Shown here in pieces: positions 28,991 to 35,586 of a stretch of 64,000 bases of DNA (within the stretch, counting starts at the first letter, position 1; each line of letters starts with the position of its first letter). The stretch is taken from positions 14,377-78,376 of the forward strand of contig SKXQ01000054.1 in assembly GCA_007128315.1 (NCBI GenBank), written 5' to 3'. The translations under genes were made by a program, and so were the position numbers. The notes below the pieces were generated by a model. It ran no database searches. It was not told the DNA's origin and saw nothing but the letters and a program-made list of their open reading frames with translations. The DNA is from Spirochaetaceae bacterium. Its GTDB lineage: Bacteria; Spirochaetota; Spirochaetia; DSM-27196; SKKC01.

Positions 28991-31261
28991 CTACGGCCCC
29001 GCGGCAGGAGGAGCCGCATAGAGCGCGATAGCCTCGGCACGCGCCGAAGCGCGCGCGCTTCGCAGGTCGTCGGCGCTGCCGCGAAGTGAAGATACACCGT
29101 CAGGTTCCGACAAGGGCTGTGTTCCGTCATTCACGCGCATGACTGCGCCGGGATTGCGGTCGAGAAAACCCTTGACGTCATCAAAGGCTATGGAAAAAAC
29201 CGAAACTTTCGTTTCACTCGTTACCCTGACCGTGCTCGGCTGTTGACGGTGCAGCTCGCCCATGTTCCCGGCAAGCATACCGCGCTGCAGCGTGTTCGTT
29301 TTTCCGCCTTCTTCTGCGACCAGGAGACGTCCGTCCCGCACCAGAAAGACTTCCTGCACGGCTGCCCCGTATTCAACGAGGACCTCTGAAGCACCGTATT
29401 CGCGCGGCTGCAGCACCGACTCGAGCCACATCCGCTGGTAGTCGGTCAGGTGAACGAAGGGCAGCCCCTCGGCCAGCAGGTTCCAGGTCTCTTCGCTGCG
29501 GTTGCGAATCAGACGTCTCAGCACTGTTTCGAACTCGGTTCCGGCGATGAAGTTCAGGAATCGCGAACGTTCTATGGACAGAATTTCGACTTCAGACTCG
29601 GCAATAACGTCGGCTGTGCGGTCGCTGTCGGTCATGAGAGCAACCTCGCCGAAGTAGTCATACGCACCAAGCGCTTTGCCACGCACGAGGTTGTCTACGA
29701 GGACCGCCGCGTTGCCGTTCATGATGATATAAAAGTAGTTCCCCCGGGTTCCCTTGCGGATAATGTGCTCCCCGGCACGAAAGGTCTGCCGTTCGACAAT
29801 GCCAAAGAACTGCTGCACTTTAGGTACGCTCATATCCCTGGCAAAATCGAGCTGCTTCAAGACGTCGAGAACCCGGTAGGCTTCTTCGTACGGCGGCGGA
29901 GCCGTGTCGAGATACCTGGTGTTCTCTATGCCGAAAGAAGCCCGACTCAACAGCGAATCGCCCGGAAAGTCCTTCTCTGCGATGTGAAAGCAGGTGATCC
30001 TGCGCTGTACGTCTTCAGGGAGATTCGCCAGATAGGTAACCGGAGTGTGCAGCGGCGCTATACCCGCTTCGTGGTAGATCACATCTGCATCCCAGGGAAA
30101 GCTTTTCAGCTGCTCGTATCGCCGCTGATCAATCGTCCCGCCGGCAAGCATCGATTCATGGATGTCGGGGTCATTCTGGTGGTCGCTCGAGTATACGAAG
30201 CTCTTGTCCTGAAACGTGAGCCGAAAAGCCATGGTCGGAATCGAATGGACCGAGTAATAGACCGCGAACTCTCCCCCATGCACGTAGAAGCTCTGGTCTA
30301 TATACACAGGGTGAAAATCAAAGAGGGACCTCAGAAAATCCGGGTGTTCGCCCGAGAAGGATGCATACTTTCGCAGAAAGCTCTGCATGATTGTTGGCGT
30401 TGTATACACGGTCACACGACCTTCCTGAAGAATTTTCTGAAAGGTTCCCGCGTCGTGGTCTGCATGGCAGTGCGTCAGGATGATGGAGTCTATGAACTTG
30501 GGGTTTACGTTCGACTGAAGCAGCCACTCGGTGCAGTTGACGGGGGGATCGACCATGATGCCGCTGTGGTTGAGCCAGATAATGAAACCGGACGTGTTAT
30601 CATGCGGGTCAAAGCCGTGACTCGGTCCGAGGCATGTTACCCCGAAGCGCGGGGGCACAAAGGGAGTCGACAGTCGCTCACCGATATCATACTGCGGTGT
30701 GTAGGAGACCGCTGCCGGTACAGAGACCGCCTCGAGCCCGTCCCAACTGAACTGGAAGCTGTCGGGCGTACTGCGAATATGCACGCCGTCGATCTCGACT
30801 ACATCATCCTTGAAGCAGACAATATCAAACAGATCCTCCAGGGCCAGCGCCCCCCGGAAAAACGAGAGCTCACGGCTGATATCAGGAACCCAGGAATCGG
30901 GGTCATCCGAGAAGAGGTCCTGTCGCAGATCGAGCTTCCCGGGTCCGAATACCGACTCCCGAATCGCAACCGAAAGCCGCGCACCCTGTTCTTCGGTGCA
31001 GCATATCGTAACCTTCTGTTTGCGTATAAAAAAATTAAAGTAGATCGGAAACTCCATGTCACCGACGTTGATGCCCTTCTGCCAGTGAAACAGATCATGC
31101 GGGAGCACGAAGATTCTCGGGACCGACTCCGGCGTCACCAGAGTATCCTTGATCGTCTCCGGCGGAGCTCCCACCTGTATACCCCCGATTGGCGTCCGGA
31201 CGATACGACCGCCACGCGGCAGTTCTACGACGGTCCCGACCTGTATTTCTGATTCCTTCAT
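28991..31261 (-). CDS. Metallo-beta-lactamase-fold hydrolase with two cyclic-nucleotide-binding domains (putative cyclic-nucleotide phosphodiesterase)
   Basis: THCHADHD (HxHxDH), VHSIP, YSSDH, HEAG. cNMP domain FYIIMNG...YFGEVAL...RTADV, followed by a second, degenerate cNMP domain. Confidence 0.88.
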   Translation of the reverse strand: MKESEIQVGTVVELPRGGRIVRTPIGGIQVGAPPETIKDTLVTPESVPRIFVLPHDLFHWQKGINVGDMEFPIYFNFFIRKQKVTICCTEEQGARLSVAIRESVFGPGKLDLRQDLFSDDPDSWVPDISRELSFFRGALALEDLFDIVCFKDDVVEIDGVHIRSTPDSFQFSWDGLEAVSVPAAVSYTPQYDIGERLSTPFVPPRFGVTCLGPSHGFDPHDNTSGFIIWLNHSGIMVDPPVNCTEWLLQSNVNPKFIDSIILTHCHADHDAGTFQKILQEGRVTVYTTPTIMQSFLRKYASFSGEHPDFLRSLFDFHPVYIDQSFYVHGGEFAVYYSVHSIPTMAFRLTFQDKSFVYSSDHQNDPDIHESMLAGGTIDQRRYEQLKSFPWDADVIYHEAGIAPLHTPVTYLANLPEDVQRRITCFHIAEKDFPGDSLLSRASFGIENTRYLDTAPPPYEEAYRVLDVLKQLDFARDMSVPKVQQFFGIVERQTFRAGEHIIRKGTRGNYFYIIMNGNAAVLVDNLVRGKALGAYDYFGEVALMTDSDRTADVIAESEVEILSIERSRFLNFIAGTEFETVLRRLIRNRSEETWNLLAEGLPFVHLTDYQRMWLESVLQPREYGASEVLVEYGAAVQEVFLVRDGRLLVAEEGGKTNTLQRGMLAGNMGELHRQQPSTVRVTSETKVSVFSIAFDDVKGFLDRNPGAVMRVNDGTQPLSEPDGVSSLRGSADDLRSARASARAEAIALYAAPPAAGP

Positions 31262-31360
31262 TTCTCCCCCGCACCACTCCGAATGGTTTTTGCAGTGTAC
31301 TCGCGCTCCGGGTACGCTGCAATCTATTCTATGTACTACACATCCGACGTGATTTCACGG

Positions 31361-31389
31361 TTGACGGCTCACGGGAGCGGGTATAGCAT
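31361..31389 (+). promoter_or_regulatory. Sigma70-type promoter of an intergenic transcript
   Basis: TTGACG-N17-TAGCAT; the same hexamers and spacing occur before hom. Confidence 0.75.
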
Positions 31390-31395
31390 CATGGT

Positions 31396-31658
31396 AGATG
31401 GGGTGTTAATCCTCCATGACAAACGGAGGCGTGAACTATGAAGAGTGAATGCGTTCCGCCGGACAGGGAAGGCCGGTCATAATCCCGGCACCAGACAGAG
31501 ATCGCAATCGTGCGATTCACTATCCCACCCGTGGCGCCGATCGGCGCACACGAACAGGCGGTCGAGGCGACTGAAGCAGCAAACAGTCGTAGCGGGTATA
31601 CCCCGAAAAATAATGGAAAGACCGCGTCAGCCGGCTCACAAGGAGCCGGCTTTTTTTT
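31396..31658 (+). ncRNA. Candidate structured small RNA (about 260 nt), family not recognised
   Basis: Bounded by the promoter and a U8 terminator. Possible closing helix GGGGUGU(31400)/AUACCCC(31598) and at least 5 local hairpins. Only very short ORFs with a plausible start. Confidence 0.55.
31629..31658 (+). terminator. Intrinsic terminator
   Basis: AGCCGGCTC-ACAAG-GAGCCGGCT followed by a T-run. The U-tract is on the + strand although the adjacent protein gene is on the - strand. Confidence 0.88.
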
Positions 31659-31691
31659 GCCGTCGCCTGCGGTATATGCCCTGTCCGATGA

Positions 31692-32576
31692 TCAGTACGT
31701 CTGGCTGAGAGGGAGCGAGAGTTTCCGCGTCCTGAGGCCTGTGGTCGTAAACAGAAGTTCGCGCGCCTCGTTGTTCACCCATTCGAAGACCGCCCGTGCG
31801 CCGAACCCCTGACTGACGAAGGATGCCGCAGTGTCGATACAGAGGTAGCGGCCCTCGTATCGCTTCAGAAACACCCCCGAGGTCTGGGGCGTATGCCCGC
31901 AAACATATATGTTGGCGCGATTGTTATGGAGAAAGGTATGCAGAACCGTCGTATAGTCGGGTTGCGCGTGCTGCCCTGCAGCGTCGGAACACAGAATGCT
32001 CGTCTCCGGCGAAAACAGCGACAGAGGCAGGTCAGCGTCGCCACGACGAAACGAACGGGCGTGCTGATCGAGCTCCTGTTTTACCGCCCGATTGATGTCG
32101 GCGAGCTGAAGGTCGCGAAAGACCGGAGGCAGGTCGGCTGGAGCGAATATGAAGGGGTCAATCCGGACGACCACCGGCAGCGTGACGAGCCAGCGGGCAA
32201 GCCACCCTCCCGGGGCAAACGCGTGTTCGAATCCGGTCGCTTCGGGATCACTGTCCTCCTGATAGAGGGCACGTTCCGATTTCGAGGAGTCCAGGTGTAT
32301 TCCAAACAGGTTCATGAGTTCGTGCTTACCCAGAAGCGTGTAGACCCTGCTCCCCCGTTTCGGCGCCTGCGCCTGCAGCTGTATCAGCGATCGGTAGATT
32401 GATGCGCTGTCCGGGCCCCGATCGCACACGTTACCGAGAACAACAAATGCAGTCTCTGACGCGGCAAAGCGGCCGTCCGAATCGGTAAGCTCGCAGGCCC
32501 GAAGTATGTCCCGATAGAAGTCTGCTTCTGCGTGAAGATCGCCGACAGCGATGATGCGCTTGAACGCTCGGGCCAT
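31692..32576 (-). CDS. Calcineurin-like metallophosphoesterase (Shewanella-like phosphatase type) with degenerate metal ligands
   Basis: GDLHA, LGNVCDRGPDS, LGKHELMN, FAPAD, CGHTPQ and CIDT occur in the canonical order. Confidence 0.85.
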   Translation of the reverse strand: MARAFKRIIAVGDLHAEADFYRDILRACELTDSDGRFAASETAFVVLGNVCDRGPDSASIYRSLIQLQAQAPKRGSRVYTLLGKHELMNLFGIHLDSSKSERALYQEDSDPEATGFEHAFAPGGWLARWLVTLPVVVRIDPFIFAPADLPPVFRDLQLADINRAVKQELDQHARSFRRGDADLPLSLFSPETSILCSDAAGQHAQPDYTTVLHTFLHNNRANIYVCGHTPQTSGVFLKRYEGRYLCIDTAASFVSQGFGARAVFEWVNNEARELLFTTTGLRTRKLSLPLSQTY

Positions 32577-32605: not shown

Positions 32606-33370
32606 TCAGTACATCATGAAAGTCAATACAAGAAACAAGCCCATGCCGAGCAGCCCGACGACCCCGCTTCCTTTAAGGTTCCAGAATGCCAGCTGACCGA
32701 CTGACTCGAGAAACCAGGTCAGAAGATACACAATGAGCAGGGGTACGACCGGGAGCCCGAAGGTTCCGAGGACAAGCCTGACGGCAAAGGTAATCAGACT
32801 TGCACCCAGAAACCAGCCGAAGAGATTCTGAAAGGGAATCCCGAAATACCAGCCATCCTGCTCCCATTCCCAGAACCCCCAGCCGACCATCTGCGGGTCG
32901 AGGAACAGATCCCAGGCTGCAAAAGCCGCACCAGCGACCAGGGAGAAGGCGAAAATATTCCCGCCAGGGACAAGGACGGTCGCGACCGCCCACGCCGGAG
33001 GCATCATCATGATCCAGGCGATGGGGATGAGGACCGGTACCTCTCCGATCTGCGGTTGTAATACCTTTGTGTAGTGATAGCGTCCAAACGGATGGCCGGT
33101 GTGACTACCGACGAACTCGAGCAGCCATCCGAGGACCGCTACGAGGACCGCGGCGATGCCAGTCGCCTGTAATCCCGCCCCGAGAGCCATAAGCGCCAGG
33201 ACGGTTGCTGCCTGCAGCAGCACACCGACGGACACACCCAGGGGGACCGCAGAGTCAGATATTACCCATCGGATGATCGGCAACCCGATCATCGAGAGCA
33301 GCCACACGGTACCGAGCAGCAGGACAGCTACCGGCATCTCAGAGAGCGAAACAATCATGTGTTCAAACAT
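32606..33370 (-). CDS. cruF: Carotenoid biosynthesis membrane protein, CruF-like (carotenoid 1,2-hydratase family)
   Basis: EFVGSHTGHPFGRYHY, VPVLIPIAW, AWDLFLDP, YFGIPFQNLFGW; directly downstream of a lycopene cyclase. Confidence 0.85.
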   Translation of the reverse strand: MFEHMIVSLSEMPVAVLLLGTVWLLSMIGLPIIRWVISDSAVPLGVSVGVLLQAATVLALMALGAGLQATGIAAVLVAVLGWLLEFVGSHTGHPFGRYHYTKVLQPQIGEVPVLIPIAWIMMMPPAWAVATVLVPGGNIFAFSLVAGAAFAAWDLFLDPQMVGWGFWEWEQDGWYFGIPFQNLFGWFLGASLITFAVRLVLGTFGLPVVPLLIVYLLTWFLESVGQLAFWNLKGSGVVGLLGMGLFLVLTFMMY

Positions 33371-33372
33371 AC

Positions 33373-34542
33373 TCAGGACCTTATTACACGCCAGCCCGCT
33401 TTCAGAAAGGTCGGAATGGGTACGGTAGACATAAGTTTCAGATTTTCCCGTATACCACCCTCCTCGTCGAGAAAGCGGAACATACGGGTAACAGGATTCC
33501 GGTCGAAGAACCGAACAAAGACATGTTCGGCAAGATCTCCACGATCGAGCAATACCTGCAGGAGTATGGAGTCAAAACGGAAGTATCGGGGCGGTGTACG
33601 CGGAAGATCAAAGGGATGCCCGGTTCGCTTGAGCGACGCGACGATGGCTTCCGAGTCCCACTGCATGCGCATGAAGGCGTAGCCGGTTGACGCTTTCACC
33701 CGTCCGCCTCTCGTGCCGGTTCGCAGGATGTGACGGCCGCCACGACGCTCAAACGGCTGGTCGGTCATGGGGATAATGCAGGACTCTTCTGCTGTTATCT
33801 CGTAGTCGGTAATTCCGAGAACGCGGTGAATATAATCGTGAATCCGTCGATCGTACTCGTCCGGAGGCAGCGTATCAGGGCTGAACAGCGTGTACTCCAC
33901 GAGGGCCTCACGAGGACTCCAGGGCAGAACGTAGAAGAAACGCATGACATCGTGCTGTGGCGTCCGAAAGTCGAACATGCGCGCGACATCCACGTTAAAA
34001 AAGTCCCGGGCCAGGCGTATCTCGACGCCTTTGAAATGCTGCTTCAGGTTCCGGTACTTCGACTCGTCGACGACAAAGTCCTGGTATTTCCAGAGACTGT
34101 CGAAGACCCACCGGCCACGGTAAGCCCGGCCTCCGGCAACGATTTCCGCGCCGTCGTCGGTGTCGCGGACCTGGTCGACCGAAGCGGTAAGAATCTCCAC
34201 ATGCGGACACGTCGCCAGGCGCTCCTTCACGAAGCGATAGAAGTCCTCGGAGCGAAGCATCTGATACCGGTACGGCGCAAGCGGCAGAACAAGGTCCTTC
34301 CCGTCACCGGTGATCTGCAGGGTATCCCAGCTCCTGCGGGCTATGCCGTCAAATGGTGTATCACCCCTGACCCAGTAACACCAGGTACGGTCGTTCAGGC
34401 GTTTTTCTTCCTCGTCGACGATGAGTATTCGGGAGTTCTCGAAACCGCCTTCGACGAGATGCCAGGCAAGACTCAGGCCTGCTCCTCCGCCACCGGCGAG
34501 AATGAAATCGTAGTCGACGGCGACCGCCTCTGTTTGCGCCAT
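33373..34542 (-). CDS. Lycopene beta-cyclase family FAD protein (CrtY/CrtL type)
   Basis: DFILAGGGGAGLSLA, NDRTWCYW, QHFKG, MFDFR, FFYVLP, LVEYTLFS, IPMTD, GGRVKASTGYAF. Confidence 0.9.
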   Translation of the reverse strand: MAQTEAVAVDYDFILAGGGGAGLSLAWHLVEGGFENSRILIVDEEEKRLNDRTWCYWVRGDTPFDGIARRSWDTLQITGDGKDLVLPLAPYRYQMLRSEDFYRFVKERLATCPHVEILTASVDQVRDTDDGAEIVAGGRAYRGRWVFDSLWKYQDFVVDESKYRNLKQHFKGVEIRLARDFFNVDVARMFDFRTPQHDVMRFFYVLPWSPREALVEYTLFSPDTLPPDEYDRRIHDYIHRVLGITDYEITAEESCIIPMTDQPFERRGGRHILRTGTRGGRVKASTGYAFMRMQWDSEAIVASLKRTGHPFDLPRTPPRYFRFDSILLQVLLDRGDLAEHVFVRFFDRNPVTRMFRFLDEEGGIRENLKLMSTVPIPTFLKAGWRVIRS

Positions 34543-34548
34543 GCCACC

Positions 34549-34600
34549 AATGTACCGCTCGCACATTCGCTTGACAACGAGAAAGCACCGTGCCCACACT
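34549..34600. promoter_or_regulatory. Back-to-back promoters with overlapping -35 boxes (lycopene cyclase / galE)
   Basis: + strand TTGACA(34571)-N18-CACACT-N8-ATG; - strand TTGTCA(34577)-N17-TACATT-N6-ATG. Confidence 0.6.
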
Positions 34601-34608
34601 GCATTCAT

Positions 34609-35586
34609 ATGCGAATACTTGTTGCCGGCGGCGCCGGGTACATCGGCAGTCACGTTACTCGGGCCCTGCTCGATACGGGCTATGAAGTCTGTGTCTTTGA
34701 CGACTTCTCATCGGGTCAGGAAGAGAATCTCTTCCCTGAAGCAGAGCTCGTTCGCGGAAGCATTAAGGACAGCGCCCTGATCGGAGAGACCCTGAGCAGA
34801 GGCTTTGACGCAGTCGTACATCTCGCAGCCTTCAAGGCAGCGGGCGAAAGCATGACCGAACCCGGAAAGTACGCGGACAACAACATCGCCGGTACGATCT
34901 CGCTTCTCAACGCCATGGTCGAGCACGGAATCGGGAACATCGTGTTCTCGAGTTCAGCCGCCGTATACGGGGAGCCACAATACATTCCGGTCGACGAAGC
35001 CCATCCTGCCAACCCGACGAACTTCTACGGCTTTACCAAGCTCGAGATCGAACGGATCATGGGATGGTACGACAGACTCACCGGGCTAAAGAGCGCGTGC
35101 CTGCGCTATTTCAACGCAGCCGGCTACGATACCGACGGGAGGATCGGAGGGCTCGAACGCAACCCTGCGAACTTGCTGCCTGTTATCATGGAAGTTGCCT
35201 CGGGCGCACGAAACGAGCTTTCGATATTCGGGAACGACTACGATACACCGGACGGGACCTGTATTCGCGATTACGTGCACGTGACAGATCTGGCGAACGC
35301 CCACGTCGCTGCGGTGCACTATCTTTTCGAAACGCACGACAGCATCGCAGTGAACCTTGGAAGTGAACAGGGCTACAGCGTGCAGGAAATGCTCGACGTG
35401 GCACGCCGTGTGACCGGAAAGGAGATCCCGTCGAGGATCGTGGCGCGAAGAGCCGGCGATCCTGCGAGACTCGTTGCATCGAGCAGTATGGCGTCACACC
35501 ATTTCAGCTGGGATACGCTGTTTTCAGACCCGGAAACCCTCGTTGCAACAACCTGGGAAGCCTATCAGAAGCACATGAAGGCATAG
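34609..35586 (+). CDS. galE: UDP-glucose 4-epimerase
   Basis: GGAGYIGSH, HLAAFKAAGES, FSSSAAVYG, YGFTK, LRYFNAAG, DGTCIRDYVHV. True start ATG 34609. Confidence 0.97.
   Translation: MRILVAGGAGYIGSHVTRALLDTGYEVCVFDDFSSGQEENLFPEAELVRGSIKDSALIGETLSRGFDAVVHLAAFKAAGESMTEPGKYADNNIAGTISLLNAMVEHGIGNIVFSSSAAVYGEPQYIPVDEAHPANPTNFYGFTKLEIERIMGWYDRLTGLKSACLRYFNAAGYDTDGRIGGLERNPANLLPVIMEVASGARNELSIFGNDYDTPDGTCIRDYVHVTDLANAHVAAVHYLFETHDSIAVNLGSEQGYSVQEMLDVARRVTGKEIPSRIVARRAGDPARLVASSSMASHHFSWDTLFSDPETLVATTWEAYQKHMKA

Follow-up and report, generated by a model that had tools for sequence, protein, structure and literature searches.

Contig SKXQ01000054.1 of the Spirochaetaceae bacterium assembly GCA_007128315.1 carries a 430-nucleotide (nt) gap between two minus-strand open reading frames (ORFs), and the question raised by this gap is whether it holds a gene of its own and, if so, how the product of that gene works. 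The window analyzed here is the 64,000-nt stretch from 14,377 to 78,376 of the forward strand, and all coordinates count from its first letter. An earlier note, made from the sequence alone, had proposed that the gap encodes a lineage-specific, stand-alone structured RNA on the plus strand, placed between two minus-strand genes and bounded by a promoter TTGACG-N17-TAGCAT and a U8 terminator. Each of these elements was recovered at the locus: both flanking ORFs read on the minus strand, the terminator stem-loop is followed by T8, and the promoter, the RNA body and the terminator are present in all four genomes of one Spirochaetaceae genus. We conclude that the interval is very probably a real, stand-alone small RNA (sRNA) gene. 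The best explanation of the locus as a whole, to which we assign a probability of about 0.45, is a plus-strand sRNA gene whose product acts as an Hfq-independent, trans-acting riboregulator through the loop of a hairpin here called P2.

The genus set consists of four species-level genomes: the source genome G000 (a 3.3-Mb assembly, 90.6% complete) and its relatives G001, G002 and G003. The promoter words GTTGACG and GCGGGTATAGCAT are kept in all of them (G000, G001, G003 and G002), and so is the terminator. A DNA search of 40 relatives with the G000 unit gave full-length matches in G001 (95% identity) and G003 (80%) and a match to the 3' half in G002 (84%), where only query positions 179-297 and the promoter (query 1-29) are covered; the other matches were due to chance (15-43 nt, E ≥ 0.004). 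The 3' module shared by the four genomes is better conserved than its surroundings. Its nucleotide identity between G000 and G001, G002 and G003 is 95.5, 79.7 and 87.9%, respectively, compared with 88.7, 68.0 and 67.0% for the coding sequence (CDS) of the convergent Metallophos gene and 93.9, 64.6 and 61.5% for the spacer upstream of the sRNA promoter. Spacer DNA on both sides of the unit is poorly conserved in the alignment of the four genomes.

The sRNA was found only in this one uncultured spirochaete genus. A covariance model of the 3' module (R1) scored 130-164 bits in the four genus genomes and at most 30 bits elsewhere, across 10 genomes of the family and 99 of the order. In the 11 alignments of weak matches (17-30 bits) that were inspected, the similarity is essentially that of the terminator, in some cases with a P0-like hairpin, and one match is a tRNA plus a terminator; outside these 11 are L052 and L053 (order level, about 25.5 bits) and several weaker family-level matches. 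A model of the 3' core without the terminator (R2) matched G000 and none of the 150 other genomes in a set of 151 from the class. With filters off, R2 scored at best 10.3 bits or less in the regions upstream of the orthologue of the left-hand flanking gene in five sister-genus genomes. An exact 20-mer matched genome contigs only in the three genus relatives, and neither this 20-mer nor a degenerate 25-mer had any match in metagenome contigs. The homologue search across Spirochaetia proposed in the earlier note therefore yielded a conserved unit in the four genus genomes, and the sRNA was not found in the 95 other order genomes or the 150 other class genomes searched.

Part of the window is contained in eleven public sequencing runs, of which five are RNA libraries. 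We mapped four metatranscriptome runs (X3, X6, X9 and X10; three studies) on positions 30700-32400, and each yielded exactly one contig on the unit, 208-220 nt in length and wholly within 31406-31649. None of these contigs extends across the promoter or the U-tract, and the flanking genes are almost uncovered. The word depth of the unit contig compared with that of a neighboring-gene contig was 13.9 versus 2.9 in X3 and 475 versus 5.6 in X6, contig depth being a poor measure. This pattern is what an abundant, discrete sRNA would give, and it supports the presence of such an RNA. Four DNA runs (X4, X5, X7 and X8) contain small shares of the window (0.18-0.29) and may include further variants; they are not counted as evidence.

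These contigs bear directly on whether there is a functional RNA here at all, as the gap might instead be conserved intergenic regulatory DNA in which promoter-like and terminator-like signals arose by chance. The sRNA promoter is the only sigma-70-like site in 30500-32500, where 0.7 such sites are expected from shuffles; a site at chance frequency means that the promoter and terminator signals alone prove little, and the covariation within the unit is not significant. The short contigs from three studies are nevertheless confined to the unit, the region is better conserved than the flanking coding sequences, and the promoter is kept before a shortened body in G002. We consider an origin of these signals by chance extremely improbable.

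Transcription of the sRNA would begin at about 31396-31397. The full 263-nt RNA folds with a minimum free energy (MFE) of -103.2 kcal/mol (z = -4.17), a stability matched by 0 of 200 shuffles. The same 3' architecture is predicted for the alignment by RNAalifold and for each of the four homologues folded separately: the hairpin P0, a three-way junction of the stems P1, P2 and P3, an A-rich linker and the terminator. Plus-strand fold z-scores of the homologues range from -4.5 to -6.1. Standard pairs fill 97.9% of the alignment cells, a share that falls to 31-39% if the partners are shifted by 1-3 columns. Both bases differ at three pairs: P0 has two such double changes (U-A for C-G in G003 and C-G for G-C in G002), and P3 has one at its fifth pair, where species have either C-G or A-U. 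From these predictions, the 3' fold, including the three-way junction, appears plausible. The orientation of the promoter and U-tract, the G-U pairs and the fold energies favor the plus strand. Six pair columns contain predicted G-U pairs, in one column for every genome, and each would be an A-C mismatch on the opposite strand; the alifold energy is -54.6 on the plus strand versus -49.2 on the minus strand, and the fold z-score of G002 is -4.5 versus -1.6.

The finer structural proposals of the earlier note were borne out in part. The hairpins CCUCC/GGAGG, GCCGG/CCGGC, AUCGCA/UGCGAU, GCGCC/GGCGC and CGACUG/CAGUCG all occur in the sequence and the last four appear in predicted structures, but the CCUCC segment is paired otherwise in the MFE and consensus folds. 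The alternative pairing CGGUCG/CGACUG is not supported, as the consensus fold pairs CGACUG with CAGUCG in P2. Pairing of the ends through GGGGUGU and AUACCCC cannot form in G003, and AUACCCC lies in the local P3 hairpin. Two of the four RACAG repeats are lost in G003.

Table 1. Features of the sRNA locus in window coordinates, with the metatranscriptome contigs that map to it.
Feature	Position	Strand	Description
sRNA promoter	31361-31389	+	-35 TTGACG 31361-31366, 17-nt spacer, -10 TAGCAT 31384-31389; pattern scan
Predicted sRNA transcript	31396-31659	+	About 262 nt
5' accessory domain	31396-31529	+	About 130 nt; in G000, G001 and G003, absent in G002
CCUCC/GGAGG hairpin	31411-31415 / 31425-31429	+	5' domain; Shine-Dalgarno-sequestering, CCUCC invariant
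14-codon ORF	31438-31482	+	MKSECVPPDREGRS; GGAGG 8 nt upstream
GCCGG/CCGGC hairpin	31472-31489	+	5' domain; gains pairs in G001 and G003
GAUCGCA/UGCGAUU hairpin	31500-31517	+	5' domain; loop varies, stem constant
3' core module		+	About 130 nt, in 4/4 genomes; P0, three-way junction (P1, P2, P3), A-rich linker, terminator
P0 hairpin	31530-31552	+	Consensus fold (RNAalifold)
Three-way junction	31558-31625	+	P1 enclosing P2 and P3; consensus fold (RNAalifold)
P1	31558-31563 / 31620-31625	+	GCGGUC / GACCGC; consensus fold
Invariant 30-mer	31567-31596	+	Identical in 4/4 genomes; includes P2 loop AAGCAGCAAA
P2	31567-31590	+	CGACUG/CAGUCG stem, apical loop AAGCAGCAAA
P3	31593-31605	+	Local hairpin CGGG-loop-CCCG, includes AUACCCC
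A-rich linker	31606-31619	+	14 nt, between P3 and the 3' strand of P1
Intrinsic terminator	31629-31659	+	Stem-loop 31629-31651 (9-bp stem, 5-nt loop), U8 at 31652-31659
X3 contig	31418-31625		208 nt, no differences from G000
X6 contig	31406-31609 plus 15 letters fitting the G001 variant		219 nt, G001-type differences
X9 contig	31439-31648		G001-type differences
X10 contig	31429-31649		G001-type differences
MBL/cNMP gene	28991-31261	-	756 amino acids; metallo-beta-lactamase fold and two cNMP-binding domains
Candidate promoter of the divergent MBL/cNMP gene	31290-31322	-	TTGCAG-N17-TACACT; read directly from the sequence, outside the sRNA
Metallophos gene	31692-32576	-	294 amino acids; convergent with the sRNA

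The sRNA is a new family without Rfam relatives, of a familiar kind. Rfam 15 gave no match at the gathering score in the full window, and a permissive scan (E up to 10) of 31200-31800 returned noise, with a best score of 21 bits against a 60-bit threshold and the rest mostly terminator look-alikes. ARAGORN likewise found no match in the window. The transfer-messenger RNA (tmRNA), signal recognition particle (SRP) RNA and RNase P RNA of this genome are encoded elsewhere, on contigs C155 (145 bits), C54 (71 bits) and C155 (218 bits), respectively. The statement in the earlier note that the element matches neither tmRNA, RNase P RNA, SRP RNA nor the common riboswitches thus agrees with the searches, and no known RNA of Rfam accounts for the unit.

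Two known classes named in the earlier note, a divergent 6S RNA and a CsrA sponge, find no support in the analysis of the element. This sRNA resembles 6S RNA in being a structured, abundant, stand-alone RNA in the size range of 180-260 nt, but it is restricted to one genus, and its predicted fold is a chain of hairpins with a three-way junction rather than a rod with a central bubble. The closing end pairing is not kept in G003, and in G002 there is only the 3' half, as a form of 137 nt. The 6S model RF00013 found no match in the window or in the G000 genome at E up to 10, nor did it match any of 41 genomes of the order (G000-G040), compared with 5-7 of 14 control genomes; the 6S RNA of the order is either too divergent for this model or absent. 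Because RF00013 finds nothing throughout the order, the missing 6S RNA says nothing about this sRNA, and we rejected it as indirect support for a 6S-like function.

The genome does encode CsrA (PF02599, 89.6 bits, contig C39), and one A(N)GGA at the terminator loop is present in all four homologues, as a relative of the CsrB/RsmY/RsmZ sponges might show. GGA is not enriched, however, with 5, 5, 4 and 3 occurrences per homologue compared with shuffle means of 6.2, 6.3, 5.4 and 3.0. Nearly all of these 3-5 copies are in paired regions (only 0-1 per homologue are mostly unpaired), and most are not conserved. The four ANGGA motifs of the earlier note are counted 4, 4, 1 and 1 times in G000, G001, G003 and G002. 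A sponge for CsrA was therefore rejected on the grounds of number, pairing and conservation of its would-be binding sites.

A riboswitch or attenuator leader was also considered and rejected. The next gene is convergent, no Rfam aptamer matches, and no competing antiterminator pairing was found when the 3' arm of the terminator was omitted; the 5' arm remained unpaired in the truncated folds of all four homologues. The terminator thus appears constitutive from these folds, and the lack of both a downstream plus-strand gene and an antiterminator makes a leader unlikely. Among sRNAs derived from leaders, rnTrpL is presented as attenuation-derived in one report (PMC6614838). With such RNAs our element shares a short ORF, structures and a terminator, here with the three-way junction directly before it, and it differs in having no same-strand downstream gene, no antiterminator and no Rfam aptamer match.

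We propose that the sigma-70-type promoter would drive an abundant structured RNA of about 262 nt, from a start at about 31396 to the constitutive terminator ending at 31659. The 3' module of about 130 nt, with P0, the three-way junction, the A-rich single strand and the terminator, would be its conserved working part. The unpaired, invariant 10-nt loop of P2 would be presented in trans to a complementary RNA without the help of Hfq, and the 5' module (about 130 nt) would be a lineage-variable accessory, perhaps with an additional coding role in the three species that have it. This reading draws on two features of a trans-acting base-pairing sRNA that are found here. The gene has its own promoter and intrinsic terminator, apart from the neighboring mRNAs, and the P2 loop AAGCAGCAAA (10 nt, 31574-31583) offers a conserved, accessible seed, being invariant in all four genomes with a mean unpaired probability of at least 0.9. 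An element that is both invariant and unpaired is the usual signature of a seed, and trans-acting base-pairing is favored because the P2 loop is predicted to be both. That the sRNA works by base-pairing through this particular loop is a tentative proposal.

Parallels to this arrangement exist in other bacteria. RsaE/RoxS of Firmicutes act in trans without Hfq and carry their seed in a hairpin loop, a C-rich sequence directed against the Shine-Dalgarno (SD) sequence. The spirochaete sRNA is like them in having its own promoter, a hairpin chain, a terminator and a short invariant unpaired loop in a genome where Hfq was not detected; it is unlike them in its A/G-rich loop and its limitation to one genus, neither sequence nor Rfam relates it to them, and the searches yielded no conserved target. 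SgrS/SgrT, RNAIII/hld and SR1/SR1P are dual-function sRNAs whose modular layout, a small ORF with its SD beside a conserved non-coding module, is similar to that seen here, but the putative ORF of the spirochaete sRNA has 14 codons and is absent in one of four species, and there is no homology.

Several observations weigh against a riboregulator of this type, beginning with the evidence for the RNA itself. The metatranscriptome contigs are blind to strand, exact ends and true level, and DNA carry-over is possible; they are therefore supporting evidence rather than proof. The structural support from covariation is weak, as the observed values are reached by 34 of 500 column shuffles, so that the three double changes stand without statistical significance; there are only four sequences to compare, two of them 95% alike. 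P1 and P2 never vary across the four homologues, and for this reason their support is thermodynamic. Hfq was sought in G000, an assembly of 90.6% completeness, with one Pfam model (PF17209) and was not found; a divergent Hfq is possible. In Borrelia, a gene once annotated hfq is flgV according to a 2024 report (PMC11607428).

The searches for targets also weigh against this reading. Complements of 10-mers from the core number 77 genome-wide versus about 80 that we estimate would arise by chance. In a duplex scan of 2821 crude translation-initiation regions of one genome, the minimum of the real seed was attained by 34 of 60 shuffled seeds and its mean over the top 25 by 41 of 60. The exact complement of the P2 loop is not enriched compared with a reversed control in any of the four genomes, and its sites include only one orthologous pair. 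A 13-nt perfect complement, GCTGCTTCAGTCG, lies at 30512-30524 (minus strand) inside the MBL/cNMP CDS and would pair with the P2 5' arm and half of the loop. This site is kept in G001, but in G002 three synonymous changes disrupt it while the sRNA core stays the same, and it is therefore probably due to chance.

The last of these objections is that the invariance of the whole P2 stem fits a recognition surface for a protein or ligand equally well. The 3' module would then be a structured RNA bound through P2, the junction and the A-rich strand, by an RNA-binding protein or possibly by a flanking enzyme of the cyclic-nucleotide or phosphoesterase type. The complete invariance of the 30 nt of P2 and its flanks, including the stem, goes beyond what a seed requires, and the three-way junction includes a long A-rich joining segment; the searches yielded no set of complementary targets, and the genus keeps strict synteny with the flanking MBL/cNMP and Metallophos genes, the former being weakly RNase Z-like with two cyclic nucleotide monophosphate (cNMP)-binding domains. 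The same flanking gene counts against it, since MBL/cNMP orthologues (60-70% identity) are found in 10 of 10 family genomes and the RNA in only the four of the genus; the protein therefore does not depend on the sRNA. No homologue is present in the syntenic or upstream regions of the five sister-genus genomes, no known aptamer or protein-binding family of Rfam matches, and the invariance may reflect the small divergence among four genomes. We regard recognition by a protein or ligand as rather unlikely, and retain base-pairing by the P2 loop as the preferred, if provisional, mechanism.

The neighborhood of the sRNA gene is constant, with the same two genes on either side in all four genomes of the genus. 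The similarity of the metallo-beta-lactamase (MBL) domain of the MBL/cNMP protein to models of RNase Z and cyclic-nucleotide phosphodiesterase is weak, with scores far under the cut-offs. Because its neighbor across the sRNA is a Metallophos phosphoesterase gene, the locus may be a cyclic-nucleotide locus. It is highly unlikely, though conceivable, that the 3' module is an orphan sensor or partner RNA of these genes, as the substrate, guide or regulator of a cNMP-gated hydrolase or as a second-messenger aptamer, to which the 5' module adds a micropeptide. If this were true, the sRNA would combine two unrelated functions in separate modules and would have arisen within one genus. Just past the Metallophos gene, at 32606-34653 on the minus strand, a gene for a carotenoid biosynthesis protein (PF04240) adjoins one for lycopene cyclase (PF05834).

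Upstream of the sRNA, a pattern scan had marked a plus-strand terminator-like hairpin at 31290-31322. We interpret this stretch instead as a candidate minus-strand promoter serving the divergent MBL/cNMP gene. G003 and G002 retain its two hexamers, with TTGCGG as the first in G003, at the same distance of 17 nt; since the site agrees with only 7 of 12 consensus positions, it is no more than a candidate. It lies 38 bp from the -35 hexamer of the sRNA, and the two promoters would therefore form a divergent pair. Between them, a motif TAC(C/T)ACA is kept in all four genus genomes. A palindrome, CGTGATTTCACG, at 31348-31359 lies 1 nt upstream of the sRNA -35; G000 and G001 have it, and G003 and G002 lack it.

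The convergence of the sRNA with the Metallophos gene, seen in all four genomes, would fit a role in cis. Convergent transcription and the terminator could insulate the Metallophos gene from the MBL/cNMP gene, or the RNA could pair with Metallophos read-through transcripts, to which it would be fully complementary. Such minus-strand read-through across the sRNA gene is plausible because the hairpin has no U-tract on the minus strand. In the other direction, there is no room for a regulated antisense read-through that enters the Metallophos gene, since the terminator has no antiterminator alternative and appears constitutive, and no RNA contig crosses the terminator. Mere interference does not need a conserved structured body, G-U pairs or an invariant loop, and the MBL/cNMP gene appears to own a conserved candidate promoter downstream (in its own sense of reading) of the sRNA gene. 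A cis-acting or antisense element is thus improbable, more so than recognition by a protein or ligand.

The 5' domain behaves differently from the 3' module. In G002 the conserved promoter stands directly before the 3' half, about 130 nt (about 31400-31529) are missing, and the predicted RNA is about 137 nt; the 3' module is therefore the constant part of the gene. Either G002 has lost this stretch or the other lineage has gained it. At the G002 locus (L004, about 1450-1620), the promoter abuts an extended P0 hairpin whose altered sequence still pairs (AGCUCC/GGGGCU).

Within the 5' domain, the earlier note had pointed to a 14-codon ORF with a buried GGAGG and to a 3-codon mini-ORF (ATGGGGTGTTAA). 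The latter is not conserved, there being no ATG at that place in G003. The longer ORF is better kept, with the same length, frame, ATG, TAA and GGAGG 8 nt upstream in three of four genomes, including G001 (MKSECVPPDREGRV, ending …GRV) and G003 (MTSECVPPIHSGRR), but it is missing from G002. Its SD can pair with the upstream CCUCC. A back-translated ORF pattern was found only at the sRNA locus in three of the four genomes and neither at the locus nor elsewhere in G002. Translation of this ORF seems doubtful to us.

It is still less likely that the gene is mainly a tiny mRNA or a dual-function RNA, in which a 14-residue peptide M(K/T)SECVPP… is made under the control of the CCUCC/GGAGG hairpin. 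The well-placed GGAGG before the ATG would suit such a role. Although G000 and G003 differ at 14 of 45 nt, length, start and stop are the same in three genomes, and of the three changes in codons 1-8 two are synonymous and one is non-synonymous. Codons 9-14 are barely conserved, however, and the comparison has effectively two independent sequences only. The SD is paired in the CCUCC/GGAGG hairpin as read from the sequence, and the region also folds as RNA. Moreover, G002 lacks the ORF and the 5' domain, with no copy elsewhere, yet keeps the promoter, the 3' module and the terminator.

Literature searches for this sRNA found no description of it and returned mostly work on Borrelia and Leptospira, together with one Rfam-based metatranscriptome survey, a soda-lake paper whose accessible text reports only Rfam-known non-coding RNAs (PMC6704655). 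The sRNA has no bearing on any long-standing open question, and its function is a guess. It is a candidate new Rfam family from a group, the free-living uncultured spirochaetes, whose regulatory RNAs are almost unknown. With its occurrence in one genus, its fixed genomic position and its presence in RNA libraries of three studies, it offers a clean case of a young sRNA gene, and the presence or absence of a 130-nt domain between sister species makes it a useful example of sRNA birth and remodelling.

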